The notes beneath the pieces are model-generated. The model was not told the DNA's origin and did no database searches. It saw only the letters and a list, made by a program, of their open reading frames with translations. This document shows, piece after piece, positions 16,689-53,276 of a stretch of 64,000 nt of DNA; the stretch's first letter is position 1; each line of letters opens with the position of its first letter. The translations under genes were made by a program, and so were the position numbers. The DNA is from Myxococcaceae bacterium (GTDB lineage: Bacteria > Myxococcota > Myxococcia > Myxococcales > Myxococcaceae), in contig JAXLYB010000002.1 in the NCBI GenBank assembly GCA_046351675.1, positions 64,001-128,000 of the forward strand, read 5' to 3'.

Positions 16689-16745
16689 CGAACTATTTTG
16701 CAAGGCCCCGCCGCGGGCCCTGTCCCCTCGTCAGGAGGAAGCACC

Positions 16746-18791
16746 ATGTGCCCTGACGAGAACACCCTGCAGAAGTTCGCCAACGGCCAACTCACCGAGA
16801 TGACGGCCCTCGAGGCGCACCTCGACGGCTGTGAGGCGTGTCGCCGCGCGGTCGCCGCCGCCGCGTCAGACGCCACCCTGCCCGCCCAGCTGCCGTCGTC
16901 GACGCTGAGCCCCGGCCAGCGGGTGGCCCGGTACGAAGTCGAGCGCGAGCTCGGCCGCGGCGGCATGGGCGTCGTCTACCAGGCGCGCGACGTGACGCTC
17001 GACCGGCGCGTGGCGCTCAAGATTCTGCACGCGCGGCGCGACGAGGCGGCGCAGGCGCGGCTGCTGCGCGAGGCGCAGGTGATGGCGAAGCTGACGCACC
17101 CCAACGTGGTGCCGGTCTTCGAGCTGGGCGAGTGGAAGAACGACCTCTACCTCGTGATGGAGCTGGTGCCGGGCGTCACCCTCGAGGCGTGGCTCAAGCG
17201 CGAGAAGCACCGCCGCCGCGACATCGTGCAGGCCTTCCTCGCCGCGGGCCGGGGGCTCGCCGCTGCGCACGCCGCGGGCGTGGTGCACCGCGACTTCAAG
17301 CCGGCCAACGTGCTGATGGGCCTCGACGGCCGCGTGCGCGTCACCGACTTCGGCCTCTCGCGCCCCGGGCCCGCGCTGGAGCTGCCCGCGACCGACTCCG
17401 CGCTCGTCACGCGCGACGGCAGCATCGTCGGCACGCTGGCGTACATGTCGCCCGAGCAGCTCGACGGGAAGACGGCCGACGAGCGGTCTGATCAATTCAG
17501 CTTCTGCGTGTCGCTGGTCGAGGCGCTGCAGGGCACGCGCCCCTTCAAGGGCGAGAAATGGACCGAGCTCGCGAAGAGCGTGACGGAGCCGCCCTCGCTC
17601 TCGGGCGTGCCCCGCGCGATGCGCTCGGTGTTGAAGCGCGGCCTCGCGCACGACCCGGCGCACCGCTACGGCTCGCTGACCGCGCTGCTCAACGCGCTCG
17701 AGCGCAGCCAGCAGCTGGGCTGGGGCGCGGTGGGCGTCACCGGCACCATCGCGGCGATGGTCTCGTTCCTCTTCGTCGCGCCGCCCGCGTGGAGGCCCGC
17801 CGCGCTGCTCGGCTTCGACAAGTCCGCGCAGTCCATCACCTTCCCCGATGAGGACCTGGTGCCGGTGGTCATCGCCTCGCGCGACATCAAGGCCGGCACG
17901 GTGGTCGAGATGGAGATGCTCGCGCAGCGCGTGATGCCCAAGCCCTTCGTCACGCAGTCGGTGATCAGGCCCGACTCGGTCTCGTACATCGTCGGCCAGA
18001 AGCTCAACATCGACGTCTACACGGGCGACGTGCTGACCTGGCCGCAGTTCGAGACGGTCGAAGACGCGAAGAAGAACGCCGCGGCCGAGGAAGAGCGGCT
18101 GCCCGTGGTCGTCGCCGCGCACGACCTCCCCGCGGGCACGGTGGTGACCGCCGACATGCTGATGCAGCGCCAGTTGCCTCGGCAGTTCGCCACCACGTCC
18201 ATCGTGAAGCCCGACGCGCTCAGCTACGTGCTCGGCCAGAAGCTCCTCGTCGACGTGCAGGCCGGTGACCTCGTGCTGTGGTCGCAGTTCGAGACCAGCA
18301 AGCAGCAATCGGGTGAGGAGCTGGTGACGGTGCTCACCGCCGCCGACAACGTGCCCGAGGGCGCGACGCTCAGCCCCGACCGCATCGTGCACAAGCAGGT
18401 GCCGAAGTCGCTGGCCACCAAGTCGGTGCTGCGCCCGCAGCAGACGCCGCACGTGTGGGGCCACCCGCTGCTCGCCAATTTGAAGAAGGGCGACCTCCTG
18501 CTCTGGTCGCAGCTCTCGAAGGACCAGTTCACCGACGACGGCCTCGACTCACAGACCATCGCCAACCAGGCCGAGCGCCTCTCTCCGCTGATCACCGACT
18601 GCGCGAAGAGCGACCCGGCACCGCCGGTGAAGTTCAGCGTGCGCGCCGACGGCTCGCTCTTCGACGTGCGCGTGAACACCGAGAACGCGACGCTGAAGGA
18701 CTGCGTCTTGCGCGCGCTCGAGAAGGAGAAGCTGCCGAGCGCGAAGCACGCCACGTGGGACGTGAGCCTCACCATCAATTCCGTGCCGTGA
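16746..18791 (+). CDS. Ser/Thr protein kinase with N-terminal ZAS-type anti-sigma motif, one TM segment, three periplasmic SAF-domain repeats and a C-terminal domain
   Basis: ATG at 16746 has a good RBS (AGGAGGA 7 nt upstream). The N-terminus MCPDENTLQKFANGQLTEMTALEAHLDGCEACR carries the H-x3-C-x2-C ZAS motif. Kinase motifs are RYEVERELGRGGMGVVYQA, HRDFKPANVL, DFGLS and YMSPEQ. The TM segment is TGTIAAMVSFLFVAPP. Three repeats of ~70 aa of the form VV.A..D...GTVV...ML..R..P..F...S...PD..SY.LGQKL..DV..GD.L.W.QFE are SAF-like. Confidence 0.8.
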   Translation: MCPDENTLQKFANGQLTEMTALEAHLDGCEACRRAVAAAASDATLPAQLPSSTLSPGQRVARYEVERELGRGGMGVVYQARDVTLDRRVALKILHARRDEAAQARLLREAQVMAKLTHPNVVPVFELGEWKNDLYLVMELVPGVTLEAWLKREKHRRRDIVQAFLAAGRGLAAAHAAGVVHRDFKPANVLMGLDGRVRVTDFGLSRPGPALELPATDSALVTRDGSIVGTLAYMSPEQLDGKTADERSDQFSFCVSLVEALQGTRPFKGEKWTELAKSVTEPPSLSGVPRAMRSVLKRGLAHDPAHRYGSLTALLNALERSQQLGWGAVGVTGTIAAMVSFLFVAPPAWRPAALLGFDKSAQSITFPDEDLVPVVIASRDIKAGTVVEMEMLAQRVMPKPFVTQSVIRPDSVSYIVGQKLNIDVYTGDVLTWPQFETVEDAKKNAAAEEERLPVVVAAHDLPAGTVVTADMLMQRQLPRQFATTSIVKPDALSYVLGQKLLVDVQAGDLVLWSQFETSKQQSGEELVTVLTAADNVPEGATLSPDRIVHKQVPKSLATKSVLRPQQTPHVWGHPLLANLKKGDLLLWSQLSKDQFTDDGLDSQTIANQAERLSPLITDCAKSDPAPPVKFSVRADGSLFDVRVNTENATLKDCVLRALEKEKLPSAKHATWDVSLTINSVP

Positions 18792-37075: not shown

Positions 37076-38434
37076 TCAGTTCTCGGGATACGCCGTCCAG
37101 CCGGTGGTCCAGTCGTCGGTGCCGACCGCGCCCACGAACGTCGCGCTCGAATCGAAGAACCCGTCGCTCGGCGGCGTCGCGCCCCCCATCAGCGCCGGCG
37201 AATCCGCGAGCGGCTTGAAGACCGGCGCCGTGACGTTGGTCGCCGCGACGAGCTTCGGGTCGATGTCGAGGCGGTTGTTGAGCGACGGCGCCTGCATCGC
37301 GCTCAGCTCATCGAACATGTTGTCGCTCACGCCACCGTCCGCCAGCGCGGGCGCGTGGTAGTCGACGACGCCGTTCACCGGGTTCTGGAAGAAGATGGAG
37401 TTCTTCACCGCGAGCGCCCCCATCGACCACTGCTCCTTCGACGGGTTGCCGTTCACGATGAGCCCCGTGTCGGTGAAGTTGGTGACGACGACGTTGTGCA
37501 GCAGCCCCGCGGTGCCCGCGCGCAAGATGATGCCGCGCGAAGGACCTTCCGACGCCGCCATGTCCGGGTTCCGGCCGACGAGCGTGACGTTGTAGAGCAC
37601 CGGCGCGCTGCGGGGCATGAGGTCGGCGTTGGTCGCGTCGTTGTCGGCCTCGATGCCGTGGTTGCCGCGCCCGGGGACCTGCGCCGCGATGACGAACTGC
37701 GCCTTGCCGCGCCAGCCCTTGTCCCAGTCGAGGCCGTCGTCGTCGCTGCCGGTGATGACGAGGTGCTTCATGTTCACCGTGCCACCGAACAGCTCGATGC
37801 CGTCGTCGACGCCGCGGTGCACCTGCACGAAGTCGATGGTGGTGCCGCTGCCGCACCCGTTGAGCGTGATGCCGTTGAGCTCGTTGTTCGCCGAGAGGGG
37901 ACGGCCGGCGAACTCCACGCGCACGTACTTGAGCGTGCCGCAGTCGTAGGCGTCGTCGGTGCCGCCGTACTTGTTCTTCGGATCATCGACGAGGCCTTCG
38001 GCGTTGCCCTCGCCGCCCATGGTGTTGATCACCGCGCGCCCGAGGAACACCAGGCCGCCCCAGTCACCCTGCACGCTGCCGCGCTGGCCGGCCGGCAGGC
38101 TCGAGGTGAAGACGATGGGCTCGCTCGCCGTACCCGCCGCCACCAGCTTCGCGCCGCGCGAGACGATGAGCGCCGACGCCGCGTCACCCGCGATGGTGGT
38201 GCCCGGCTGAATCGTCAGCGTCGCGCCCGTCACGTAGGTGAGCTGCTTCAAGATGTAGACGTGGTCCTTCGTCCACGTGGTGTCGGTGGTGATGTCAGCC
38301 GTCACGTCGATGGTCGCCGACGCGCCACCACCTCCGCCCGCACCGCCACCCGTACCGCCATCGGGGGTCACGGTCGCAGGGCACGCCAACAACAACGTCG
38401 AGACACACAGCGCCAGCAGCAGCTTCGCGTTCAT
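37076..38434 (-). CDS. secreted lipoprotein, probable right-handed beta-helix fold, co-transcribed downstream of the TonB-dependent receptor
   Basis: ATG (cat 38432..38434) gives MNAKLLLALCVSTLLLACP with a lipobox. This start overlaps the receptor stop as ATGA. The protein is rich in G/D/N/T with repeated turn-like segments. ORF 37076..38710 is open upstream, but that part is antisense to the receptor's 3' end. Confidence 0.6.
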   Translation of the reverse strand: MNAKLLLALCVSTLLLACPATVTPDGGTGGGAGGGGGASATIDVTADITTDTTWTKDHVYILKQLTYVTGATLTIQPGTTIAGDAASALIVSRGAKLVAAGTASEPIVFTSSLPAGQRGSVQGDWGGLVFLGRAVINTMGGEGNAEGLVDDPKNKYGGTDDAYDCGTLKYVRVEFAGRPLSANNELNGITLNGCGSGTTIDFVQVHRGVDDGIELFGGTVNMKHLVITGSDDDGLDWDKGWRGKAQFVIAAQVPGRGNHGIEADNDATNADLMPRSAPVLYNVTLVGRNPDMAASEGPSRGIILRAGTAGLLHNVVVTNFTDTGLIVNGNPSKEQWSMGALAVKNSIFFQNPVNGVVDYHAPALADGGVSDNMFDELSAMQAPSLNNRLDIDPKLVAATNVTAPVFKPLADSPALMGGATPPSDGFFDSSATFVGAVGTDDWTTGWTAYPEN

Positions 38435-41400
38435 TTCTTCTCCTCGGTGAGGTTCCAGGAAAGGGTCGCCATGAACTGCACGCCCGGTGGGTTGACGAGC
38501 ACGTCCACGCCGTTCTGTTGAAACCTGACGGCCTGGTTGAGCACGTTGGCCGCGGACACCTTGAGCGACAGGCCCGCGGGCAGAGGCTGGGTCACGGTGA
38601 CGTCCAGCCGGTGGAAGGGCTGCTCGACGATGTCGGGCAACCCGTTGAAGCCCACGTCGGAAATGCGCGGGCCGTACACGTTGTAGAAGACGCCGAGCTC
38701 GGTGCCCCACGTCGGGTGCGCCACGGTGACGAACGCGTTGGCGATGAAGGGCGACTGACCCTGCAGCGGCCGCGCGGAGTTCGTCTGCGGCGAGTTCGGG
38801 TCGAGCTGAATGCGCGACCAGATGAGCGAGAGGTTGCCGCCCACCGTCACCGGCTTCAGCGCGGGCGAGAAACGCGAGAGGTTGCTGCGCGCCTCGAGCT
38901 CACCGCCGATGAGCGTCGCCGCCTTCGAGTTGCGGAACGTCACGTCGCCCGCCAGCGAGCTGGTGCCGTAGATGACGCGCTCGATGGGCTGCTCGAACTG
39001 CTTGGCGAACGCGCTCACCGCGATGACGTCGCTCTCGCCCAGGAACCACTCGCCGCGCAGGTCCATGTTGTGGATGCGCGTGTTGACGAGGTCGGGGTTG
39101 CCGCTGACGTTGCGGCGGCGAACCATGTCGAAGAAGAGGAACGGCGCCAGCTCGCGGAAGCTCGGCCGCGCGAGCGTGTACGCGTACGAGGCCCGCAGGT
39201 TGAGCGCGCTGGTCGGCGACCACACCACGTTGGCGGTCGGCACCACGTCGACGCGCTGGCGCGCCACGCTCGGAATGCCCGCCGACACGCCCGTCGCGAA
39301 CGGAGAGCCACCCACCAGCGTCTGCGTCGAGCCCTCGACCCGCACTCCCGCGAGCGCGCGCAGCGTGGGCAGCGGCTTCCACTCGGTGCTGACGTACCCG
39401 CCGTAGACCGCGAGCGACGCGGAGTAGCGGTCGTACGCCTGCGTCGTCTCCTCGAGCGTGAGCACCTGGTCGCCGGTCACCGGAGGACCGAAGCGCTCGG
39501 GCACCAGCAGCTCCTCGAGCGGGTACTTCTCGAGCTCGGCGCTCAGCCGGCCGAGGTAGCGGAAGCGGCGCCCGTCGAAGCTTCGCCCCGAGACCTGCCC
39601 CAGGCCGCCCGCCTTGAACTTGAAGCTGCGCCACGGGACGGTGAGGTTGAGCGTGCCGCCGCCCTGGTCTTCGTGGAGCGTGAGGAAGAAGCGCTCCACC
39701 GAGTTGGGCTGAATGCGCACCTGCGTGCTGCCATCGGCGTTCACCATGTACCGCGCGTCGCGAATGTCGGGCTCGTCGCGGTTGACGCGCGAGTAGTTGA
39801 GCTGCCACTCGAGCTCCGCGTCGCCGAGCGTGGGGAAGCGGTGCGTGCCCTTGAGCTGGTTGAAGAAGAGCTGGCGCGCGGTGAACTGCAGGCGGCTGCC
39901 GGTGACGTTCTGCGTTTCCTGCTGGTCGAAGCCGGCGCTGGTGGTGGCGCTGGTGTCGGCGTTGAAGAGATAGAGGCCGAGTGCGCTGATCTCGTGGTGG
40001 CGATCGAGCTGCAGCCCGGCGTTGAGCAACGCGCTGGTGGCACCACTCACGGTGCCAATCTGCGTCGTGAAGTCGCTCTCGCCCGCGTCGAGGCTGATGG
40101 TGCGCACCTGCAGCACCTGCCGCCGCTCGCGCCGTGAAATCTGGCCCGACGCGAGGAAGCCGAGCTTCGCCTCGCGCCCCAGCGAGAACGTGTCGCCCGC
40201 GGTGAAGCCGAACGTGCCCGACGGGAGGCTGTTCACGACGCCCGGGGTCCACCGCTGGCTGAAGGCCGACGCCGCCGCCTTTTGGACGTCAGCGCCGACG
40301 CCCGAGCCACCGATGCGCGCGGGCACCAGCGGTTGATCAGCCGGAATCGCCGAGGGCAGCGCGCGCGAGGCGTTCGCGAAGCCGATCGACTCCAGCGCCG
40401 TCGAGGCCTCGTTGGGCCGCGCCTGGAACGTCGTCATCGTGTCGCCCGACACCTGCGCGCGCAGCTTCACCTCGAGCTTGGTGGGGAAGGTGTTGGTGTC
40501 GATGGTCACCGAGCCGCCCGCGAAGGTGGCGGGCAGCTCCGGCGTGTAGGTCTTGATGACGTTCAAGTTCGACAGCAGCCCGACAGGAAAGAGGTCGAGC
40601 GGCACCGAGGGCTCGTCCGGTTCCGGGCTCGGCATCAGCGTGCTGTTGAGCAGCGTCTGCGTGTAACGGCCGCCCAGCCCGCGAATGAAGACGTACTTGC
40701 CGTCGACCAGCGTCGCGCCGACCACGCGCTTCACCGCGTCGCCGGCGTTCGAGTCCGGCGTCTTGGCGATGGCCTGCGCGCCGAGCGAGTCCTGCGCGAC
40801 GACGGCCTTCTTGCGTTCCTGCACCAGCGCCGCCTCGTTGCGCTTGTCGACCTTCGCCTCGACGACGACTTCCTGCACCGCCTTCGCGTCGCGCGAGAGC
40901 GCGACGTCGAGCGGCACCGCCTCGCCCGGCTTCACCACCACGCCGGTCAGCTTGCGGCCCTCGTACAGCTCGTAGAACACGCGCAGGTCGTACGTGCCTG
41001 GCGGGAGCTTCAGCTTGAAGTTGCCGTCGACGTCGGTGAGCGCCGACTTCTTGATGGGGCCGGCGAGGACCTTGATGGTCGCCTCGATGAGCCCCTCGCC
41101 GGTGCGAGCGTCGATGACGCGGCCGCGAACGCCGACGAACGCCTTGCCCGAAGGCGAAGGCGGCGGAACGACGGAACTGAGCTCCCTCTCCCCCGCGGGG
41201 GAGAGGGTCGGGGTGAGGGGAAGAAGTCCGGCGTCGACCGCCGAACTGAGCTCCGTGAGGGGAAGCACCAACCCGCCATCGGCCCCCGCGTCGACCGCCG
41301 AACTGATCTCCCTCTCCCCCGCGGGGGAGAGGGTCGGGGGAAAAACCGACGCGCCAGCGACTCCCGAGTCGACCACCGATGGCAGCACGCCCGCGTCGTC

Positions 41401-41460
41401 GAGCGACTGCGCCCGCACCGCCACCGACGTCACCAGCACCGCGAGGAAGACCGTTCGCAC
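38431..41460 (-). CDS. TonB-dependent outer-membrane receptor with N-terminal carboxypeptidase-regulatory-like domain (Oar-like)
   Basis: 1009 aa. Signal peptide MRTVFLAVLVTSVAVRAQS, then the CarbopepD_reg-like domain (GRVIDARTGEGLIEATIKV). The C-terminus ends ...LSWNLTEEKK with a terminal aromatic-region barrel. Two palindromic repeat copies lie in frame between the signal peptide and the first domain. Confidence 0.8.
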   Translation of the reverse strand: MRTVFLAVLVTSVAVRAQSLDDAGVLPSVVDSGVAGASVFPPTLSPAGEREISSAVDAGADGGLVLPLTELSSAVDAGLLPLTPTLSPAGERELSSVVPPPSPSGKAFVGVRGRVIDARTGEGLIEATIKVLAGPIKKSALTDVDGNFKLKLPPGTYDLRVFYELYEGRKLTGVVVKPGEAVPLDVALSRDAKAVQEVVVEAKVDKRNEAALVQERKKAVVAQDSLGAQAIAKTPDSNAGDAVKRVVGATLVDGKYVFIRGLGGRYTQTLLNSTLMPSPEPDEPSVPLDLFPVGLLSNLNVIKTYTPELPATFAGGSVTIDTNTFPTKLEVKLRAQVSGDTMTTFQARPNEASTALESIGFANASRALPSAIPADQPLVPARIGGSGVGADVQKAAASAFSQRWTPGVVNSLPSGTFGFTAGDTFSLGREAKLGFLASGQISRRERRQVLQVRTISLDAGESDFTTQIGTVSGATSALLNAGLQLDRHHEISALGLYLFNADTSATTSAGFDQQETQNVTGSRLQFTARQLFFNQLKGTHRFPTLGDAELEWQLNYSRVNRDEPDIRDARYMVNADGSTQVRIQPNSVERFFLTLHEDQGGGTLNLTVPWRSFKFKAGGLGQVSGRSFDGRRFRYLGRLSAELEKYPLEELLVPERFGPPVTGDQVLTLEETTQAYDRYSASLAVYGGYVSTEWKPLPTLRALAGVRVEGSTQTLVGGSPFATGVSAGIPSVARQRVDVVPTANVVWSPTSALNLRASYAYTLARPSFRELAPFLFFDMVRRRNVSGNPDLVNTRIHNMDLRGEWFLGESDVIAVSAFAKQFEQPIERVIYGTSSLAGDVTFRNSKAATLIGGELEARSNLSRFSPALKPVTVGGNLSLIWSRIQLDPNSPQTNSARPLQGQSPFIANAFVTVAHPTWGTELGVFYNVYGPRISDVGFNGLPDIVEQPFHRLDVTVTQPLPAGLSLKVSAANVLNQAVRFQQNGVDVLVNPPGVQFMATLSWNLTEEKK
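41181..41220. repeat. palindromic repeat unit (CCCC/GGGG stem variant) in frame inside the receptor ORF
   Basis: GCTCCCTCTCCCCCGCGGGGGAGAGGGTCGGGGTGAGGGG. In the receptor frame it translates to PLTPTLSPAGERELSS. Confidence 0.85.
41307..41340. repeat. second in-frame palindromic repeat unit inside the receptor ORF, flanked by a duplicated AACTGA(G/T)CTCC junction
   Basis: TCTCCCTCTCCCCCGCGGGGGAGAGGGTCGGGGG. In the receptor frame it translates to PTLSPAGEREISS. Confidence 0.85.
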
Positions 41461-41528
41461 GCCGCGCCTTGTGCGCTCTTCGCGTGGCGCCTTTCGGGCG
41501 CGAGCGTCAATTCACTGCGCCAGTCGCG

Positions 41529-41969
41529 TCACGGCTCCGCAACGACCGGCTCAGCGAGCACCGCGAGCGTCTCCACGCCGCCGCCGCGCACCTGGTCCAT
41601 CACCTCGAGCGCGCGCCCGTAATCCATCGCGGAATCGGCATCGAAGAACACGACCTTGTCCGGCCGCGCGTTGAGCATGCGCACCAGCCGCGCGTTCAAG
41701 TCCGCGCGCGCGATGGCCTCGCCGTTCACCTTCGTCGTGCCGTCGCCGTCCACCGTGAGCACGAGCGGCGGCAGCGCATCCGGCGGAGGCGGCGGCTGGT
41801 TCTCCTCGGGCTTCGGCGGCACGTTGAGCCACACCTGCTTGCTGAGCATCGGCGTGACGACCATGAAGATGATCAACAGCACCAGCACCACGTCGACCAG
41901 CGGCGTGATGTTCATCTGCGGCCGAATGCGCTTCTTGCCGCCCTTGCCGTCGTCGAGTTCGACACCCAT
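41529..41969 (-). CDS. exbD: ExbD/TolR biopolymer transport protein
   Basis: Start at MGVELDDGKGGKKRIRPQMNITPLVDVVLVLLIIFMVV (cat 41967..41969), followed by the periplasmic domain. The longer ORF to 42125 is rejected. Confidence 0.75.
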   Translation of the reverse strand: MGVELDDGKGGKKRIRPQMNITPLVDVVLVLLIIFMVVTPMLSKQVWLNVPPKPEENQPPPPPDALPPLVLTVDGDGTTKVNGEAIARADLNARLVRMLNARPDKVVFFDADSAMDYGRALEVMDQVRGGGVETLAVLAEPVVAEP

Positions 41970-41973
41970 TTCT

Positions 41974-42408
41974 TCACCCGTGGTTCTGGTTCGCGCGGTC
42001 GATGACCTGCAGCGCCGCGCCGGGAAACCCGATCTCCTGGCACCGCTTGAACATCGCGCGCACCTTCCCGTACGCGACCGCGGCATCGGCCTTGAGCACC
42101 ACGCGCGCGCTCGGCTTGTCGGCATGCAGCTTCGTCAACCGCGCCACCAACTCATCCTCCGCGACCTGCTCCTTCTCGAAGAACAGCCGCCCGTCCTTCG
42201 TGAGCGTGACGGTGGTCGGCTCGAGCGCGCCGTTGCCCTGGTCGGGGTTGAGAATCGACGGCAGCGTCACCGCGGCGCCCGCTTCCATCTGCGGCGCGAC
42301 GACCATGAAGATGATCAACAGCACCAGCACCACGTCGACGAGCGGCGTGATGTTGATGTCTGGTTTGGCGCCCGCGCGCCGCGTGGTCGAAGGAACGTCA
42401 GCCGCCAT
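41974..42408 (-). CDS. exbD: ExbD/TolR biopolymer transport protein (second copy)
   Basis: DINITPLVDVVLVLLIIFMVVAP is the ExbD TM signature. 144 aa. Confidence 0.8.
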   Translation of the reverse strand: MAADVPSTTRRAGAKPDINITPLVDVVLVLLIIFMVVAPQMEAGAAVTLPSILNPDQGNGALEPTTVTLTKDGRLFFEKEQVAEDELVARLTKLHADKPSARVVLKADAAVAYGKVRAMFKRCQEIGFPGAALQVIDRANQNHG

Positions 42409-42411
42409 GAC

Positions 42412-43179
42412 TCAAGTCTCCAGCGCGTGCTTCGCCTTCCACAGCTCGGTGGGCTCCTCGAGCGCGCCCTTGAGCGCCTCTTCACCGCGCTGAGGCTCCA
42501 CCTTCACGGCCGGTCGAAGCCCCTCCGTGTGCCGCGCCTCCAGGAAGTCGATGAACTCACCGCGCACCTGCTCGAGCGCCAGCAGCAGCGCGTCGGCCTG
42601 CGCCGAGAGCCAGTTGAACGCCAACACCGCGGGAATCGCGACAACCAGGCCGAGCGCCGTCTCGTACAGCGCCTCCGAGATGCCCATCGACACCGCGCCG
42701 AGGCCGCCCGAGCCCTCCTTCGCGATGCCCTGGAACGCGGTGATGATGCCGAACACCGTGCCGAGCAGCCCGACGAACGGCGCGATGGAGCCGACCGACG
42801 CGATGATGCTCATGCCGCGCCGCACGTCGGCCGCGACCGCCTCGGTCTTGCGCAGCAATTCCCGGCGCGCCGCCTCGACTGGTGACAGCGACGTGGGCTT
42901 GCTCGACGCTGCGACGTACGTCTTCGCGCCCGCGCCGAGCAGCTGCGCGAGGTGACCGCGGCTCTCATCGGCCTTCTTCGCCAGGCCCGCGGTGTCGCCG
43001 CTCTCGAGCAACGCGCGCGCAGTCGCCGCGAACTTCCGCGACGCCGAACGCGAGCGCCAGAACGCGAAGAGCCGCTCGAAGAAGATGGCCAGCGACGCGA
43101 GCGCCATCGCGAGCAGCGTCGAGGCGACCGCGATGGCCGGCGCGCCCATGTGGTGGAAGATGTTGGTCAGCGTGTCCAT
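42412..43179 (-). CDS. exbB: ExbB/TolQ/MotA-family proton channel
   Basis: Three TM segments. The conserved region is GMSIIASVGSIAPFVGLLGTVFGIITAF...GISEALYETALGLVVAIPAV. Confidence 0.8.
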   Translation of the reverse strand: MDTLTNIFHHMGAPAIAVASTLLAMALASLAIFFERLFAFWRSRSASRKFAATARALLESGDTAGLAKKADESRGHLAQLLGAGAKTYVAASSKPTSLSPVEAARRELLRKTEAVAADVRRGMSIIASVGSIAPFVGLLGTVFGIITAFQGIAKEGSGGLGAVSMGISEALYETALGLVVAIPAVLAFNWLSAQADALLLALEQVRGEFIDFLEARHTEGLRPAVKVEPQRGEEALKGALEEPTELWKAKHALET

Positions 43180-43183
43180 GGCT

Positions 43184-44044
43184 TCACTCCCGCAGTGAGA
43201 AGGTGATGTTGACGATCTTGAAGACGGTGATGGGCGTGCCCTCGAGCGTCGCCGGCTCGTAGGTCCACGTGCGCACCACGGCGAGCGCGGCCGAGACGAA
43301 CGGCTCCTCGCCCTTGAGCACCTGGATGCGGCCGACCTTGCCGTCGCTCTCGACGACGATTTTCAGCACCACCTTCGCCTCCTGGCCGGTGGTGCGCGCG
43401 CTCTCGGGGTACTCGGGCTGCGCGTTCTCTTCGTTGGGCACCGGCGGGTCGGCGTCTTCCGGCAGGTTCACCGGGCCCTTCGTCTGCGCGCTCGCGATGA
43501 CCGGCGCGGCCGACTCGTCTTCGTCGCGCGGCGCGGGCGCAACGGGAGCCGCGTCGAGCTTGCCGTCACCGGTGCCACCGACCGCGACCGCGATGGCCTG
43601 CACCGCGGTGTCCGACTCCTTCGGCTTCTCCTTCGGCACTTCCTTCGGCGCGACCATCGCGGCGGGCGCAGGCGGCGGCGCTTCGACGGCGACGGGCGGC
43701 GGAGGCGGCGGCTTCACCTTCGGCTTGGGCGGCGGCGGCGGCTCGACCTTCACCGGCTCCGGCGGCGGAGGCGGCGGACGGAAGCTCACGTCGACCTGCT
43801 TTTCCTTCACCGCGCTCGCGGGCCGGTTCGCGATGGCCGCGACCACCACGCCGAAACCGCCGAGCGTCAGCGCCGCCGCGACGAACGCCACCACCAGCCG
43901 CTTGCGCAGCGCGCCGACGTCAGCCTGGGCGACCTCGAAACCCTGGAACACGCGGGCGGCTTGTAGAGACGACGCACGGCAGGCCGGTGAAGCGCTCGTT
44001 CCGAGTCGGTCACAAGCTCGTCGCGTCCCCGCAACAGCGCGCAC
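43184..44044 (-). CDS. tonB: TonB energy transducer (Pro-rich spacer, C-terminal TonB_C domain)
   Basis: The TM anchor is LVVAFVAAALTLGGFGVVVAAI. The Pro-rich tract is PPPPPPEPVKVEPPPPPKPKVKPPPPPP. The C-terminus is YPESARTTGQEAKVVLKIVVESDGKVGRIQVLKGEEPFVSAALAVVRTWTYEP. The exact start is uncertain. Confidence 0.75.
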   Translation of the reverse strand: MRAVAGTRRACDRLGTSASPACRASSLQAARVFQGFEVAQADVGALRKRLVVAFVAAALTLGGFGVVVAAIANRPASAVKEKQVDVSFRPPPPPPEPVKVEPPPPPKPKVKPPPPPPVAVEAPPPAPAAMVAPKEVPKEKPKESDTAVQAIAVAVGGTGDGKLDAAPVAPAPRDEDESAAPVIASAQTKGPVNLPEDADPPVPNEENAQPEYPESARTTGQEAKVVLKIVVESDGKVGRIQVLKGEEPFVSAALAVVRTWTYEPATLEGTPITVFKIVNITFSLRE

Positions 44045-47216: not shown

Positions 47217-47621
47217 TCAGCGCGAGGCGCCCTCGAGGAGCACCGCGCCGATGGAGAAGATGGCGTACGGCACCATGCCCGCCGCGGCCGCGTAGTCCTT
47301 CGCGATGCGCTGCCCGAAGAAGAGCGCCAGCACGTTGACCCCCGCGAGCGCCGCGCCGAAGAAGGCGAACGTCGAATCGCGGGTCAGCGCCACGGCCACG
47401 CAGCCCGCGGCCGAGATGACGCCAGCGAAGACCTCGAGCACCGTGATTTGAAACAGCATCAACGTGCTGAAGCGGCGCAGCGGCGTCTTGCTGAAGAAGC
47501 CGCCGATGTATTCCTTGTTCCCTTTCCAATCGAGGACCTTGTCCAGGCCCGACTGGAGGAAGAGGACGGCGAGGAAACCCGCGGCCAGGGTCTGCGCTAC
47601 CCACAGCGCCATGTCGTGCAT
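47217..47621 (-). CDS. DoxX-family membrane protein
   Basis: Start at MHDMALWVAQTLAAGFLAVLFLQSGLDKV (cat 47619..47621). There are 3-4 TM helices. The longer ORF to 48095 is antisense to 47662..48828. Confidence 0.65.
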   Translation of the reverse strand: MHDMALWVAQTLAAGFLAVLFLQSGLDKVLDWKGNKEYIGGFFSKTPLRRFSTLMLFQITVLEVFAGVISAAGCVAVALTRDSTFAFFGAALAGVNVLALFFGQRIAKDYAAAAGMVPYAIFSIGAVLLEGASR

Positions 47622-47661
47622 GACGCGCGACGTACCACATGCGCTACACAAGTCGCCGATG

Positions 47662-48828
47662 GAGAAGGACGACCTCCGCAAGCGGCTCGAGGGTGACGCC
47701 GAGGCGCTCGACCGCGCGGTGGTGCGCCTGCGGGCGCTGGTGCCGGCGCTCGGCGCGTGGACGTGGAAGGCGCGGGTGCGCGGCCTGGCCGACGTCGCGC
47801 GCGCCGTGGCCCGCAGCGAGCTGACCACGCGCAAGGCCATCGATCGCGCGCTGCGCCGCGCCCGCGCCGAGGCCTGGCCGCGCGGCGCGACCCGCTCGCT
47901 CGTCGAAGACGCCGCGTCACTGTTCGAGTCGCTCGACGCGCAGCTCGAGCGGCACGGCTTCGCGACGCTCGACGACCTGGTGCTCGCGGTGGTGGGCCAG
48001 CGACGCGCCGTGGGGCTCGCCGAGCGCGAGTCGGCCGCGGCCGAGGTGCTCGACCCGGAAGATCCGCTCGTCGCGCGCCTCTCGCGCTTCACCACCGCCG
48101 TCGCCCCGCTCTACGGGCGCCCCCGCGACGCGCGCGCGCTGCCGCTCTCGCGCACCGAGCACGCGGCGCTCACCGACGCGTGGACCGACGGGCTCCTCGC
48201 GCTCACCGAAGCCTGGCGGCGCGTCGACGGGCTCGACGAGAGCGGCGGCGTCACCCGCTGGCTCCAACGGCGCGCGGGCGTCGCGCCGAAGTCGACCCGC
48301 ACGCTGCGCACCGGCCCCGGCGCGCTCGCCGGCGCGGAGTACTGGAAGCACCACGCGCTCGCCGCGCAGGCCTTCGCGGTCGAGACGCACTTCGCCCCGG
48401 TGAAGGTGGCGGAACCCGAGCGCGCCGCGTGCTTCGAGTTCCTGCTGCGGCGGCACGATGACGGCTCGGCGCGGCTCGACCTCGACCCGCAGCCCGCCAG
48501 CCCCCCCTCGAAGCGCACCACCGCGGGCCGCGCGCGCACCGACAGCCCGCAGGAAGAGCGCGCCCGCGCGGCGTTGCTGATGCTCGCACACGAGCTGCGC
48601 GGCGGCGCGCCCGGGCGGGCCGCGCTCGAGGGCGGCGTGCGCCAGGTCGCGCAGTGGGCGAGCACCGCCGACGCGCTGCAGGGCGAGCCCGACTGGACCT
48701 CGCTGCGCGACGCCCTGCGCCTCGTCACCGCGCGCAGCTTCCAGCGTTCCCTTCCGCCCCTCGCCCAGAAAGGCGGGCCGCGGCGCCCGCTGGAGCAGAA
48801 GCTCGCCGACTTCTTCCCGGGTTCGTGA
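47662..48828 (+). CDS. hypothetical protein (Arg/Ala-rich, no recognisable domain)
   Basis: It has GC3-rich coding character. The start is uncertain, because in-frame ATGs at 47611, 47620 and 47662 are all possible. I chose 47662 to avoid overlap with the divergent DoxX start. Confidence 0.4.
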   Translation, partial: EKDDLRKRLEGDAEALDRAVVRLRALVPALGAWTWKARVRGLADVARAVARSELTTRKAIDRALRRARAEAWPRGATRSLVEDAASLFESLDAQLERHGFATLDDLVLAVVGQRRAVGLAERESAAAEVLDPEDPLVARLSRFTTAVAPLYGRPRDARALPLSRTEHAALTDAWTDGLLALTEAWRRVDGLDESGGVTRWLQRRAGVAPKSTRTLRTGPGALAGAEYWKHHALAAQAFAVETHFAPVKVAEPERAACFEFLLRRHDDGSARLDLDPQPASPPSKRTTAGRARTDSPQEERARAALLMLAHELRGGAPGRAALEGGVRQVAQWASTADALQGEPDWTSLRDALRLVTARSFQRSLPPLAQKGGPRRPLEQKLADFFPGS

Positions 48829-48840
48829 GAGAGAGGCGTC

Positions 48841-49404
48841 ATGAAGCACCTCGCCCTCGTCGTGATGCTCGTTTCCGCCGCCGCGCTCGGCGCGCCGAAG
48901 AAGAAGGGCCCTCCGCCGCCGCCTCCTCCGGTCACCGAGCCGACGCTCAAGGTCACCGAGGCCCTGGGCGACACCGTGCTCGGCTTCGTCATCAACGCGT
49001 CGAAGGTGCAGGCGTGGCGCGTCGCTGACTCCGGCGGGCTGCGCCCCGAGGCGAGCAAGGCCATCGGGTCCGACTTCGTGCGCGGCGCGGCGGGCAGCGA
49101 GCTCGACGCGAAGGCCCTCGAGGCGCTGCGCAGCGTGCTCTACGACGACAAGAGCTACCGCTTCGAGGCCGACGTCTCGAAGTGCCGCTTCGTGCCGCAC
49201 CTCTCGTTCCAGCTGCAGGTCGGGCTCGACACGCTCGAGGCGCTGGTCAGCTTCTCGTGCAACGAGGTGCTCTTCTACGTGGGCAAGCAGGGCGGCCGCT
49301 GGGTGCCGCAGGGCACGTTCGACGTGAAGCCGGCGCGCAAGAAGCTGCTCGAGCTCGCGAAGGCGACGCTGCCGCAAGACAAGGAAACGCAGAACCTGAA
49401 GTGA
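48841..49404 (+). CDS. hypothetical secreted protein
   Basis: Signal peptide MKHLALVVMLVSAAALGAP, then KKKGPPPPPPPV. 187 aa. It lies 12 nt downstream of the previous gene. Confidence 0.55.
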   Translation: MKHLALVVMLVSAAALGAPKKKGPPPPPPPVTEPTLKVTEALGDTVLGFVINASKVQAWRVADSGGLRPEASKAIGSDFVRGAAGSELDAKALEALRSVLYDDKSYRFEADVSKCRFVPHLSFQLQVGLDTLEALVSFSCNEVLFYVGKQGGRWVPQGTFDVKPARKKLLELAKATLPQDKETQNLK

Positions 49405-49494
49405 CGCCCCAGCAGGAGACCGCTGGAAACACCAGCGCCCCGACCTCCGTGCTGGAGATCGAGGCGCTCATGCACCGCAGAAAAGAAGCAGGGG

Positions 49495-50016
49495 TTACAG
49501 CTCGCGGCTCATCAGCAGCCGCAGCTTCCCGCTCTTCTTCGACACCACGGTGGCGACCGTGGTGAAGCCGGCCTTGCGGTAGAACGACACGGCGGGCCCG
49601 TTCGCAGGGTCCACGCGCAGCGCGAGCGTCTTGCGGTTCATGTCGCGCGCCATCGACAAGCCTTGATCGAGCAACACGTGGCCGAGCCCCTTCTGGCGGA
49701 ACTCGGGCTTCACCACGATGTTGCGCAGGTACGCGGCGCCGGGCACCGGGCCATCACGCTCGATGGTGACGTAGCCCGCCAGCCCGCCGGAGTACTTGCC
49801 GACCGAGATGAAGGGACGCAGCTTGGTGAGCGCCTCGAGGCTCTCGGCCTGGGTCTCGCCGCGCGACTTCCACGGGTCGGAACCCGAGCGCAGGTTCGCG
49901 AGCGCGTTCATGTCTTCGTCGGTGGGCGCGGCGAACTTCACCTGCTTCCAATCGGTGGTGACCGGCATGGGGGGTGCCGCAGATGTTGCGCCACCGTCCA
50001 GCTGCTTTTCAGTCAT
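49495..50016 (-). CDS. GNAT-family N-acetyltransferase
   Basis: The acetyl-CoA-binding motif is RNIVVKPEFRQKGLGHVLLDQGLSMA, followed by the C-terminal VSFYRKAGF. Confidence 0.7.
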   Translation of the reverse strand: MTEKQLDGGATSAAPPMPVTTDWKQVKFAAPTDEDMNALANLRSGSDPWKSRGETQAESLEALTKLRPFISVGKYSGGLAGYVTIERDGPVPGAAYLRNIVVKPEFRQKGLGHVLLDQGLSMARDMNRKTLALRVDPANGPAVSFYRKAGFTTVATVVSKKSGKLRLLMSREL

Positions 50017-50222
50017 CGCCTCTCCTCCGGGTTGCTGCTCGGCCTCAAGTGGTGATCCTAACCACCAATGTCAACGCGGTGCACGAGGAGACATTTCAAA
50101 CCTGACAGACCGGTGTAGGCCCAGCGGCCACAACCGCCCCACGTGAGCCCCGGGGCGGATCAGCACGAGTGTCGGGCGTTTTCGGGTGCGGTGGCGCTGC
50201 ATTCGCCGCAAACTCCCGAGAC

Positions 50223-50930
50223 GTGCAACTGAATCACGCGCAGCGCGAGCTCACGGTCAAGATCGTCTATTACGGGCCTGGTCTGTCGGGGAAGACGACC
50301 AACCTGCAGATGATCCACCAGCGCACCAGCCCCGAGGTGCGCGGGCGGCTGCTGACCGTCGAGACCCACGACGACCGCACGCTCTTCTTCGACCTGCTGC
50401 CGGTGTTCTTCAGCACCGCCAACGGCTTCAAGGTGAAGGTGAAGCTCTTCACGGTGCCGGGCCAGGTGATTCACAACGCCACGCGCCGCATCGTGCTGCA
50501 GGGCGCCGACGGCGTGGCCTTCATCGCCGACAGCCGCCGCGCCGCCGCGCAGGAGAACAACGCGTACTGGAAGAACCTGCAGGAGAACATGCGGGAGAAC
50601 AACCTCGACCCCGCGCAGGTGCCGATCGTCATCCAGTACAACAAGCGCGATCTCCCCGACACGAAGACCGACGCGGAGATCGAAGAGACGAAGAAGAAGG
50701 GCAAGGAACCGGTCGTCGGCGCCATCGCGATTCGCGGCGTCGGCGTGCTCGAGACGCTCTTCGCGGTGCTGCAGACCGCCTACCGCTCGCTCGAAGCGCG
50801 CGCGGGCCTGAGCAAGGCCATCGGCCTGACCGAGCGCGAGTTCCTCACCCAGGTGTTCGCCAACATCGACGTCGCCGGCACCGAGCTCGAGAAGGTGTTG
50901 CCTCCGCGCGCCCCGGGGGCCCGCCCGTGA
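50223..50930 (+). CDS. MglA-family Ras-like small GTPase with ~40 aa C-terminal extension
   Basis: KIVYYGPGLSGKTTNL is the MglA-type P-loop (MglA has KIVYYGPGLCGKTTNL). LFTVPGQV corresponds to the MglA Gln82 region, and the G4 motif is IQYNKRDL. GTG 50223 gives 12 residues before KIVYYGPG, the same as MglA. The ORF is open from GTG 50169. Confidence 0.7.
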   Translation: MQLNHAQRELTVKIVYYGPGLSGKTTNLQMIHQRTSPEVRGRLLTVETHDDRTLFFDLLPVFFSTANGFKVKVKLFTVPGQVIHNATRRIVLQGADGVAFIADSRRAAAQENNAYWKNLQENMRENNLDPAQVPIVIQYNKRDLPDTKTDAEIEETKKKGKEPVVGAIAIRGVGVLETLFAVLQTAYRSLEARAGLSKAIGLTEREFLTQVFANIDVAGTELEKVLPPRAPGARP

Positions 50931-50944
50931 GACAGGGTGAGTCG

Positions 50945-52402
50945 GTGCTCCAGCGGCGCATCTCCCTCTCGGAGATGCTCGATACCGAGTCGTTCACCGA
51001 GGTGGTGAAGGGCTTCGTCGAGCTCTACCGCGTCGGCATCAAGGTGTTCGACGACAAGGGCGGGAAGATCGCCGACATCAAGATCGGCAACGGCGACTTC
51101 TGCGGCTACGTCTTCAGCTTCCCCGAGGGGCGGCGGCGCTGCACCGCGACGGTCGGCCGCGTGAAAGACGGCCCGCTCGGCACCACGCACGGCGCGCGGC
51201 TGCCGGTGCTCGAGCCCGACCTCGTGCCCACCAGCAAGGGCATGCTCACCGTGCCCTGCTTCACCGGGCTGCGGTACCTCATCGTGCCGATCTTGTGGGA
51301 AGGCGACACGCTCGGCCGCGTGGTGTTCGGCCCGTTCTTCCCCGAAGACCTCGCGCAGTTCCCGCCGCGCACGCTGACCGAGATCTCCGAGGGGCTCGAC
51401 GTCGGCAACGCGAAGGCGCTCGTCGAGAAGGTGCGCAAGGCGCCCGAGGGCACCATCGCGCGGGTGATGCTGCACTTCGGCCAGCTGCTGCAGACGATGC
51501 TGTTCGGCGGCCAGAAGATGTACCTGACCTCGCAGCTGCACATCGAGGCGACGCTCGACAGCAACCGCGAGCTCGAAGAGCGGAACAAGAAGCTCGAAGA
51601 CGCGAACGTGAAGCTGAAGGAGCTCGATCGCCTCAAGAGCGCCTTCCTCGCGACGGTCAGCCACGAGCTGCGCACGCCGCTGACCAGCATCATCGGCTAC
51701 AGCGAGATGCTGGCTGAAGGATTGGCCGGTGCGCTCAACGGTGAGCAGCTCGACTACGTGCGCACCATCATGGAGAAGGGCGAGACGCTGCTGAAGCTGA
51801 TCAGCAGCATCCTCGACATCTCGCAGATCGAAGCCGGCAAGGTGCGCCTCAACTTCGAGCCGATGGACGCGGTGGAGCTGATCAACTCGTCGGTCAGCTC
51901 GCTCAAGCCGCAGACGCAGAAGAAGGGCGTGCTGCTCGAGGCGAAGGCGCCGCAGAAGATGCCGCAGGTCACGGGCGATCGAGACCGCCTGCGCCAGGTC
52001 ATCGTCAACCTGCTGACCAACGCGATGAAGTTCACGCCCAAGGGCGGCCGCATCGCGGTGACGCTGACCGAGGTGCAGCACCAGCCCGACCTGAACGCGC
52101 CGGGCTACCGCATTCTCGTGGAGGACTCGGGCGTCGGCATTCCGGCTGATCAGTTCGACAAGATCTTCCAGAGCTTCTACCAGGTCGATTCGTCGTCGAC
52201 GCGCGAGTACGGCGGCGCGGGCCTGGGGCTCGCCATCGTGAAGAGCTTCGTCGAAGGGCACGGCGGCGTAGTGCGCGTCGCGTCGGAGGTCGGCAAGGGC
52301 AGCCGCTTCACGCTCGTGCTCCCTGCGACGCCGGGCAACACCGCGCAGGCGTTCATCGCGCCGCCCGTCACGTCGGTCGGCCCGGTCGACGATCGCTTCT
52401 GA
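50945..52402 (+). CDS. sensor histidine kinase (HisKA + HATPase_c) with N-terminal cytoplasmic sensory domain (PocR-like, Cys-containing)
   Basis: The H-box is LATVSHELRTPLTSIIGYSEM, the N-box is NLLTNAMKFTP, and the G-boxes are DSGVGIP and GGAGLGLAIVKS. The start is GTG 50945 or ATG 50975. The long ORF from 50186 is a frame artefact over the GTPase gene. No response regulator is adjacent. Confidence 0.8.
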   Translation: MLQRRISLSEMLDTESFTEVVKGFVELYRVGIKVFDDKGGKIADIKIGNGDFCGYVFSFPEGRRRCTATVGRVKDGPLGTTHGARLPVLEPDLVPTSKGMLTVPCFTGLRYLIVPILWEGDTLGRVVFGPFFPEDLAQFPPRTLTEISEGLDVGNAKALVEKVRKAPEGTIARVMLHFGQLLQTMLFGGQKMYLTSQLHIEATLDSNRELEERNKKLEDANVKLKELDRLKSAFLATVSHELRTPLTSIIGYSEMLAEGLAGALNGEQLDYVRTIMEKGETLLKLISSILDISQIEAGKVRLNFEPMDAVELINSSVSSLKPQTQKKGVLLEAKAPQKMPQVTGDRDRLRQVIVNLLTNAMKFTPKGGRIAVTLTEVQHQPDLNAPGYRILVEDSGVGIPADQFDKIFQSFYQVDSSSTREYGGAGLGLAIVKSFVEGHGGVVRVASEVGKGSRFTLVLPATPGNTAQAFIAPPVTSVGPVDDRF

Positions 52403-52405
52403 GAA

Positions 52406-52447
52406 CTCCCTCTCCCTGCGGAGCGGGGAGAGGGTCGGGGTGAGGGG
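52406..52447. repeat. palindromic repeat unit (CCC/GGG stem variant, 8-nt loop) in the 52-nt gap after the HK stop
   Basis: CTCCCTCTCCCTGCGGAGCGGGGAGAGGGTCGGGGTGAGGGG. It contains a spurious in-frame ATG (52440) for the downstream gene. Confidence 0.85.
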
Positions 52448-52454
52448 CCGAACC

Positions 52455-53276
52455 ATGTACAGCCGCGTGAAGTTTCTGATCCTCGCCCTGATCGTCGCAG
52501 CGCCAGCCCTCGCGCAGCGTGGCGAGCCCCTCACCTTCGGCACCTCGTACCGCCTCGTCTCGAAGAACCTCCGCGGCGAAGCAAAGCACCTCAACGTGCT
52601 CCTGCCGCCCGACTACGAAAAATCAGGCGCGAAGTACCCGGTGCTCTACCTGCTCGACGGCGGCGCTGATCAAGACTTCTTCCACATCGCCGGCCTGGTG
52701 CAGATTCTCATCGGCAATGGCTCGATGGCCCCGCTCATTCTCGTGGGCGTCGAGAGCGGCGACCGCAAGCGCGACCTCACCTTCCCCACGAAGGTCCCCG
52801 ACGAGCAGAAGCTCGCGAAGGTGGTGGGGCAATCAGCCGACTACCGCTCGTTCTTCGTGACCGAGGTCTTCCCCTTCGTCGAGCGCACCTTCCGCACCAC
52901 GGGCGAGCGCGGGCTGATGGGAGAGTCGCTGGCCGGGCTCTTCGTGCTCGAGACGTTCTTCCTCGCGCCCAACCTCTTCGACGCCTGGCTCGCGGTGAGC
53001 CCGAGCCTCTGGTGGAACGAGAAGTCGCTGGTGAAGGACGCGGCCGTGGCGCTCAAGAAGTTCCCCACGCAGCCCGAGCGGCTGGTGGTGGCGGTGGAGG
53101 AAGAAGACTTCAACGAAGGCGTCAGCGCGCTGCAGAAGGTGCTCGAGGCGGGCGCGCCGAAGAGCGTCAACGCCACGGTGAAAATCTTCCCGGGCGAGAC
53201 GCACGGCACGGTGTTCCACCCCGCGGCGCTCGACGGGCTGCGGCGGTTGTTCCCCGGTCCACCCCCGGCGAAGTGA
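52455..53276 (+). CDS. secreted esterase of the 'putative esterase'/enterochelin-esterase-like alpha/beta-hydrolase family
   Basis: ATG 52455 gives MYSRVKFLILALIVAAPALA as a signal peptide. YPVLYLLDGG...LMGESLAGLF is the family signature with its serine elbow. Confidence 0.55.
   Translation: MYSRVKFLILALIVAAPALAQRGEPLTFGTSYRLVSKNLRGEAKHLNVLLPPDYEKSGAKYPVLYLLDGGADQDFFHIAGLVQILIGNGSMAPLILVGVESGDRKRDLTFPTKVPDEQKLAKVVGQSADYRSFFVTEVFPFVERTFRTTGERGLMGESLAGLFVLETFFLAPNLFDAWLAVSPSLWWNEKSLVKDAAVALKKFPTQPERLVVAVEEEDFNEGVSALQKVLEAGAPKSVNATVKIFPGETHGTVFHPAALDGLRRLFPGPPPAK

Follow-up and report, generated by a model that had tools for sequence, protein, structure and literature searches.

A probable sofG operon encoding a SofG-type small GTPase and a PocR sensor histidine kinase in an uncultured Myxococcaceae bacterium

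Few Ras-like GTPases of bacteria have been characterised; SofG (MXAN_6703) of Myxococcus xanthus belongs to this small number, and substantial parts of its control are still open. Together with the bactofilin BacP, it directs two ATPases of the type IV pilus, PilB and PilT, to a pole. A previous survey of the MglA family reported three group 1 members per Myxococcaceae genome: MglA (195 residues), whose gene adjoins that of MglB; an orphan of ∼230–239 residues, represented by SofG itself (239 residues), LILAB_12945, STAU_1215 and A2cp1_4477 (their Table S2); and a form of ∼370 residues that adjoins a PATAN protein (Wuichet and Sogaard-Andersen, 2015). The same study described group 1 neighbourhoods as ones that 'vary widely', and mentioned no kinase beside SofG-type genes. 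According to two later papers, MglB, which is encoded with mglA elsewhere, has the role of GTPase-activating protein (GAP) for SofG. Here, we have analysed a 64-kb stretch of DNA (70% G+C; contig JAXLYB010000002.1, hereafter the window) from an uncultured Myxococcaceae bacterium, in which a gene for an MglA-family GTPase is directly followed by a gene for a soluble histidine kinase with a PocR sensory domain. Our results suggest that this locus is probably the sofG operon of this organism, and that the kinase is coupled to SofG functionally and probably also by physical contact.

The GTPase gene and its relationship to SofG

The GTPase gene and the features that were recognised within it are as follows.

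50223 to 50930, + strand: small GTPase, ortholog of SofG (235 residues, GTG start)
50274 to 50300, + strand: P-loop of the GTPase, KIVYYGPGLSGKTTNL
50376 to 50378, + strand: codon for Arg52, within DDRTLFFD
50463 to 50465, + strand: codon for Gln81, within TVPGQV
50640 to 50651, + strand: NKRD, the G4 motif
50805 to 50927, + strand: C-terminal extension of ∼40 residues (195–235), absent from MglA
50823 to 50858, + strand: conserved helix GLTEREFLTQVF within the extension (residues 201–212), of the pattern GL(T/S)ExEF(L/V)

Two motifs of group 1, the P-loop GxxxxGK[ST] and the G4 motif [NT]KxD, could be identified in the GTPase as GPGLSGKTT and NKRD, and both were invariant in its orthologs. 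Arg52 aligns with Arg53 of MglA, the intrinsic arginine finger in switch I, and the catalytic Gln81 is located in the G3 motif TVPGQV; the roles of these two residues in the MglA family have been described previously (Wuichet and Sogaard-Andersen, 2015). Profile matches were generic only (Pfam Arf, 26 bits; NCBIfam small_GTP, 33 bits). Among solved structures, the GTPase could be aligned without gaps to residues 4–193 of M. xanthus MglA (5ymx, E 2e-51) and also matched MglA of T. thermophilus (3t12, E 2.4e-49), with an identity to MglA of 47% by tblastn and about 47–52% across comparisons. The AlphaFold2 model of the GTPase had a predicted TM-score (pTM) of 0.77, and the best 14 Foldseek matches to this model were all MglA, with target-normalised TM-scores of 0.76–0.79. 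These observations agree with an earlier sequence-only reading of this DNA, which had pointed out the P-loop, TVPGQV and NKRD as hallmarks of MglA. The same reading had placed the start of the gene at GTG 50223, and this predicted start is supported by the length of the orthologs (232–239 residues) as well as by two loci (L002 and L041) in which the equivalent codon is the sole possible start, an in-frame stop being present 10 codons upstream. The residues that an alternative start at 50169 would add were not conserved.

The C-terminal extension, which had also been noticed before, is a genuine part of the protein. In a comparison of 99 orthologs, three of its residues (E204, F207 and L208) each reached a conservation of 95% or more, and AlphaFold2 predicted helices at residues 175–194, 196–200 and 204–212 of the C-terminal part (predicted local distance difference test score, pLDDT, 86–91). 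The helix GL(T/S)ExEF(L/V) was found throughout the clade that contains SofG, and was absent from MglA and from the long paralogs. Several more positions set this clade apart from MglA by their conservation, among them QVIHNATRR, NNxxW and a PVFF that follows switch I.

Comparison with M. xanthus revealed that the GTPase shares 73% identity with SofG (P0226) over 234 residues without a gap, the extension included. It was 77% identical to a 239-residue protein of Myxococcus sp. Y35 (L050), which in turn shared 95% identity with the protein representing a 90%-identity cluster that comprises 'MglA-like protein [M. xanthus DK 1622]' and a 239-residue protein of M. fulvus HW-1. The M. xanthus locus consists of two T2SSE ATPases (369 and 574 residues), a GNAT acetyltransferase, the GTPase and a PocR kinase, in an order that is consistent with the published numbering from MXAN_6706 down to MXAN_6702; MXAN_6705 and MXAN_6706 are PilT paralogs, of which MXAN_6705 has the longer N-terminus. 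The order GNAT, GTPase and PocR kinase is common to the window and the M. xanthus sofG locus. In addition, a neighbour-joining tree of the G domains placed M. xanthus SofG, all kinase-linked GTPases and the representatives of 226–292 residues (with the exception of P0456 and P0471) in one clade, to which neither MglA nor the long paralogs belong. Based on the identity to SofG and the matching gene order, the GTPase is almost certainly the ortholog of SofG (MXAN_6703) and not a member of a third clade.

We also examined the genes around it for the usual partners of MglA-family GTPases. Genes of the whole window were called by third-position G+C and then scanned against Pfam, and neither a Robl_LC7 (Roadblock/MglB) nor a Response_reg domain could be detected in the supported open reading frames (ORFs), as the sequence-only reading had stated for ±10 kb around the pair. 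The coupling to mglB within four genes that is usual in group 1 was therefore not found for this GTPase, which places it, like SofG, among the 59 group 1 orphans (Wuichet and Sogaard-Andersen, 2015). From the lack of both partners, and from an identity to MglA of only ∼47–52%, one might conclude, as the sequence-only reading did, that the GTPase belongs to a new clade of MglA paralogs apart from MglA and SofG, and forms with the kinase a self-contained, MglB-independent two-component module. This reading has very little probability: the GTPase is 73% identical to SofG, the genes stand in the same order, and M. xanthus SofG itself falls inside the kinase-linked clade, so that the proposal of a separate clade was rejected on gene order, identity and tree position together. 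What stands of it is that the gene unit is separate from the mglA–mglB pair; the claim of independence does not, since MglB reportedly acts in trans on SofG and the module is thus probably not MglB-independent. The locus has an ordinary, already known counterpart in M. xanthus, and its GTPase is likewise a known one.

The kinase gene and conservation of the pair

The features of the gene that follows the GTPase gene are listed below.

50927 to 52402, + strand: soluble sensor histidine kinase of PocR/HisKA/HATPase_c architecture (491 residues, most likely GTG start, overlapping the GTPase stop)
50972 to 51502, + strand: PocR sensory domain (PF10114, 64.5 bits, cut-off 23.9; residues 10–186 of the 485-residue form)
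51101 to 51103, 51140 to 51142 and 51257 to 51259, + strand: codons for three near-invariant Cys of the PocR domain
51635 to 51838, + strand: HisKA (DHp) domain (PF00512, 74.5 bits)
51662 to 51664, + strand: codon for the phospho-acceptor His, within VSHELRTPL
51974 to 52330, + strand: HATPase_c catalytic domain (PF02518, 108 bits), with N, G1, F and G2 boxes intact

The kinase is 63% identical to the M. xanthus kinase encoded downstream of sofG, and we infer that it is the ortholog of that gene, which we have taken as MXAN_6702. It carries all the features of a HisKA-class kinase, that is, the H-box His and the N, G1, F and G2 boxes, all of them conserved in orthologs; the H-box was invariant in the 31–99 orthologs compared, and the HATPase_c domain was modelled by AlphaFold2 with a pLDDT of 85–93. 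The combination of PocR, HisKA and HATPase_c was precomputed in 120 out of the 120 homologs listed. A long helix with a conserved H-x-E connects the PocR sensor to the DHp domain. No hydrophobic segment was observed (maximum Kyte–Doolittle value of any 19-mer, 1.5), and the three Cys of the PocR domain were 98–100% conserved in 99 orthologs and were present even in kinases that are merely 31% identical. The earlier description of a cytoplasmic sensory domain bearing Cys is thus confirmed and can be extended to PocR with three conserved Cys. For PocR domains in general, simple hydrocarbon derivatives or growth substrates have been predicted as the ligands that are sensed. A sequence search of solved structures with the PocR sensor yielded no resembling structure.

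The start of the kinase gene had been placed 14 nt beyond the GTPase stop (GTG 50945). In our comparison, an overlapping codon was favoured instead: GTG 50927 overlaps the stop codon TGA (50928–50930) to form GTGA, and of 129 loci compared, 105 have a start codon for the kinase frame that shares 4 nt with the end of the GTPase gene, with 3 more showing an overlap of 1 nt. The codon at +14 is replaced by GTC or GTT in many close relatives, where a start at this site is impossible and the overlapping codon is the sole candidate. Most kinase orthologs have been called by gene finders with 491–492 residues, and the called start of the M. xanthus kinase likewise overlaps sofG by 4 nt. Based on the overlap across loci and the gene-caller lengths, GTG 50927 is most likely the start of a 491-residue kinase. 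It is very likely that the two genes form one operon and are translationally coupled.

To characterise the occurrence of the pair, 61 genome loci and 80 metagenome loci were surveyed, together with representatives of more distant 50% clusters. The kinase gene directly followed the GTPase gene in ∼130 loci. In the genome loci, this was the case wherever downstream DNA exists, including a distant group with 59–63% identity for the GTPase and 42–49% for the kinase. In the metagenome loci, which reached down to 52% GTPase identity, it was the case for all loci with at least 150 nt of downstream sequence except one (L110, 1499–2143), in which the frame departs from the family at residue 215 into unrelated hydrophobic sequence; a chimeric assembly or disruption of the gene could account for this locus. 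Among the more distant representatives, the GTPase gene was followed by a PocR kinase gene in P0383 (49% GTPase identity) and, with a 4-nt overlap, in P0469 (41%), by a weakly PocR-like ORF in P0392 (47%), and by an overlapping ORF cut off by the contig end in P0496 (44%). The flanking genes vary by lineage: an esterase and GlgA in the window, NYN in Myxococcus, and PspA with PFK, AIRS or CNNM elsewhere. The pair hence survives to 41% GTPase and ∼31% kinase identity while all other neighbours change, and the view that the two genes are a real unit under selection is supported.

Single-chain fusions were also identified. A 665-residue protein (P0379; L152, 3045–5042, GCA_964429075.1) combines a SofG-like G domain and its helix with PocR-like (a weak match of 19.5 bits), HisKA and HATPase_c regions, and was placed inside the SofG clade of the neighbour-joining tree. 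Its junction is an open frame in DNA of 38% G+C, with stops throughout the other two frames, which makes a frameshift unlikely. The sensor region of this protein retains only one Cys. A second, independent GTPase–kinase fusion is the 702-residue P0455, found in at least two independent assemblies (L153/L154, 4268–9485), in which an MglA-like G domain outside the SofG clade is joined to GAF, HisKA and HATPase_c domains; its gene cluster also encodes a SpoIIE phosphatase, a single-domain response regulator, an RsbW-like HATPase_c_2 protein and another HisKA protein. The G domain is N-terminal, at the input position, in both fusions.

These data bear on the possibility that the genes merely share a transcript, and that the kinase signals in a different pathway without ever acting on SofG or together with it. 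Two points speak for it: neither a response regulator nor any other common partner is encoded nearby, and kinase and SofG are not mentioned together in the literature that we searched. Against it, the pair, its order and the 4-nt overlap persist to the lowest identities given above with the neighbours all replaced, and fusions into a single polypeptide exist. The depth of conservation makes mere co-expression less likely, and we regard it as improbable.

With respect to domain fusions in general, the best 150 library matches to the G domain were mostly proteins of 300–800 residues in which an MglA-like domain at the N-terminus is continued by a long C-terminal part that differs between proteins, and one of the proteins with such a domain (P0437) had a sub-threshold CHAT match (23.9 bits; cut-off 24). 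Across the library, small GTPase domains of the MglA type were attached to many different partners.

Possible coupling between SofG and the kinase

On the basis of the conserved pairing, a direct functional coupling between the GTPase and the kinase appears fairly likely. In the mechanism that we propose, sofG and the kinase gene would be co-transcribed and translationally coupled, and their products would act as a single signalling module, probably by direct contact. The nucleotide state of SofG, together with a PocR ligand or a redox input, would set the activity of the kinase, which would pass its phosphoryl group toward a response regulator encoded elsewhere, and MglB, also encoded elsewhere, would stimulate SofG to hydrolyse GTP. 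The position of the G domain at the input end of the natural fusions makes an arrangement in which the GTPase signals to the kinase the most likely one, and this direction is put forward tentatively.

The opposite direction is nearly as plausible as the favoured one, although in itself somewhat unlikely. Here, the kinase would be an upstream regulator whose PocR sensor controls the nucleotide state or the location of SofG, as a factor resembling an exchange factor for guanine nucleotides (GEF), a helper of the GAP or an anchor, and phosphotransfer would be secondary. SofG has no known GEF, its confinement to a single subpolar BacP patch is unexplained in the literature, and the family-specific C-terminal helix could serve as a docking element; the conserved adjacency and overlap of the genes would fit this direction as well. 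However, the G domain precedes the sensor and the kinase in both fusions, which is the usual position for an input, and the conservation of all catalytic motifs of the kinase argues that phosphotransfer matters.

A broader proposal would be that, across Myxococcota-like lineages, a SofG-type GTPase and its downstream kinase depend on each other as an obligate unit of two proteins, occasionally fused into one chain, which would amount to a G-protein-coupled histidine kinase. The kinase might then be the missing regulator or effector of SofG: its PocR domain with three Cys would perceive a cytoplasmic metabolite or redox signal and tie it to the positioning of type IV pilus motors. This is quite possible, and falls short of being the probable case.

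It should be noted that a number of observations weigh against the coupling of the kinase to SofG, or against parts of the mechanism. The presumed cellular role, in which SofG would place PilB and PilT in dependence on BacP, is taken over from M. xanthus. The window contains no genes for BacP, PilB or PilT, nor for PilT paralogs of the MXAN_6705/MXAN_6706 type. A response regulator as partner was found neither in the window nor at the M. xanthus sofG locus or the distant loci; the orphan state of the kinase had previously been interpreted as a sign of a non-canonical output, for which the absence of an adjacent response regulator is not evidence. The bootstrap values of the SofG clade are modest (13/30 and 9/20). 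The AlphaFold2 model of the PocR domain is unreliable (pLDDT <50; shallow alignment, 64–91% identity), and in P0491 (46% GTPase identity) the GTPase gene is followed with a 4-nt overlap by a kinase gene that has no detectable PocR domain, which shows that the sensor is not invariant. The fusion P0379 is a singleton on one contig of a metagenome-assembled genome (MAG). Finally, the pairing is seen mainly within Myxococcota-like lineages, and shared ancestry thus contributes to its conservation.

For the window alone, the result is a modest one: an uncultured Myxococcaceae genome has an ordinary counterpart of a locus that was already known. If the kinase is indeed the partner of SofG, the control of SofG becomes directly testable in M. 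xanthus by standard genetics and biochemistry.

Surroundings of the locus and comparison with known systems

In the window, the neighbours of the pair are the GNAT gene and an esterase gene, and GlgA is also among the surrounding genes. The following features adjoin it.

49495 to 50016, − strand: GNAT acetyltransferase (Pfam Acetyltransf_1, 55.7 bits), divergent to the GTPase gene, ortholog of MXAN_6704
50017 to 50222, no strand: divergent intergenic region between the GNAT and GTPase genes (206 nt), holding a conserved motif
50054 to 50065, intergenic: motif GATCCTAAC(C/T)AC, near-invariant in an alignment of 11 loci including M. xanthus
52408 to 52434, + strand: GC-rich hairpin with a 12-bp stem, starting 6 nt past the kinase stop codon

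The GNAT of the window is 69% identical to that adjoining M. xanthus sofG. A GNAT gene upstream of the GTPase gene is kept in Myxococcaceae-like loci and absent in distant clades, and so it is not a universal part of the module; this candidate for a third component was rejected. MXAN_6704 has been described as a GNAT (PMC4048283), and M. xanthus mutants in this gene fail in aggregation and sporulation and have few lipid bodies (PMC4048283). In a 2026 preprint based on transposon sequencing (Tn-seq), the fitness profile of MXAN_6704 groups with those of pilT and frzS. There are thus hints of a link between the GNAT of the window, as the MXAN_6704 ortholog, and the pilus pathway served by sofG. 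In Myxococcus, the PilT paralogs MXAN_6705/MXAN_6706 lie just beyond the GNAT gene (L143, 4215–7050; L062, 4111–6925), a proximity to sofG that deserves attention because SofG positions PilB and PilT. At another locus (L054, 5514–6779, − strand), a 422-residue protein with a sub-threshold bactofilin match (25.5 bits; cut-off 27.9) is encoded ∼3 kb upstream of a distant SofG-like gene, which is relevant as SofG binds the bactofilin BacP.

In the alignment of the intergenic region, the sequence outside the motif GATCCTAAC(C/T)AC diverges, and the motif may belong to a promoter or serve as the site of a regulator. A sigma-70 promoter scan of 49400–52700 gave no consensus match, and neither an Rfam nor a tRNA scan over the whole window found any candidate. 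The hairpin behind the kinase gene is a possible end of the operon: the RNA fold of 52395–52460 has a free energy of −32.5 kcal/mol with a z-score of −2.4, and the terminator scan does not call it because a T-run is absent.

Other genes of the window were recorded as well. Upstream of the GNAT gene, proteins of 454 and 187 residues (47464–49404, + strand) had no Pfam match and are kept only in the closest relatives, with 41–47% and 60–79% identity, respectively. A complete TonB-dependent uptake cluster (38431–44044, − strand) comprises a receptor with a CarboxypepD_reg domain, two ExbD, ExbB and TonB. Two DUF2378 paralogs lie close together (2202–2735, + strand; 5914–6495, − strand), a nucleotide cyclase with HEAT repeats is encoded at 11391–12578 (+ strand), and at 15894–18791 (+ strand) the gene for a sigma-70-like protein precedes that for a Ser/Thr kinase carrying two SAF domains.

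A literature search found no paper that ties SofG to the downstream kinase or mentions MXAN_6702, although the primary SofG papers were outside its reach and a prior mention is possible; a search on PocR, GTPase and Myxococcus found none either. The conserved pairing of SofG and kinase is a sound and testable lead, and the pairing itself appears unstudied.

Among known systems, the SofG locus of M. xanthus is the closest. The two GTPases share their full length, including the extension, keep the intrinsic Arg and are both orphans with regard to MglB, and in both organisms the gene is flanked by the MXAN_6704-type GNAT and by the PocR kinase. Unlike the M. xanthus gene, that of the window comes from a MAG of an uncultured Myxococcaceae bacterium (P0290), and the PilT paralogs MXAN_6705/MXAN_6706, which adjoin the GNAT gene in Myxococcus, are not in the window. 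With MglA (MXAN_1925), whose GAP is MglB, the GTPase shares the fold and the catalytic residues, whereas MglA has 195 residues, no C-terminal helix and 47% identity to it; mglA is paired with mglB, and the GTPase gene of the window with a kinase gene. The kinase has the architecture noted for PocR sensors (PocR, connecting helix, HisKA and HATPase_c), and differs from other PocR sensor kinases in that its subfamily is always encoded right after a SofG-type GTPase gene and has three invariant Cys.

The actinobacterial conservon (CvnA–D; Mfp) also encodes an MglA-family GTPase with a histidine kinase and without an adjacent response regulator, and its GTPase has been proposed in the literature as part of the signalling output. 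That the locus itself is such a system, consisting of the CvnA kinase, the CvnB Roadblock protein, CvnC and the CvnD GTPase, is extremely improbable in spite of this likeness. Only the kinase and the GTPase of the four-gene set are present, with neither a Roadblock nor a CvnC-like gene at the locus, and on this gene content the conservon reading was rejected. Moreover, the GTPase has the canonical NKxD of group 1 and not the deviant G4 of the group 2 GTPase, and the kinase is a soluble PocR protein, whereas that of the conservon is membrane-bound, with HAMP and an LPxR tail. If the kinase is the partner of SofG, the pair would represent, after the actinobacterial conservons, a second and simpler case in which a histidine kinase has a small GTPase wired into it.

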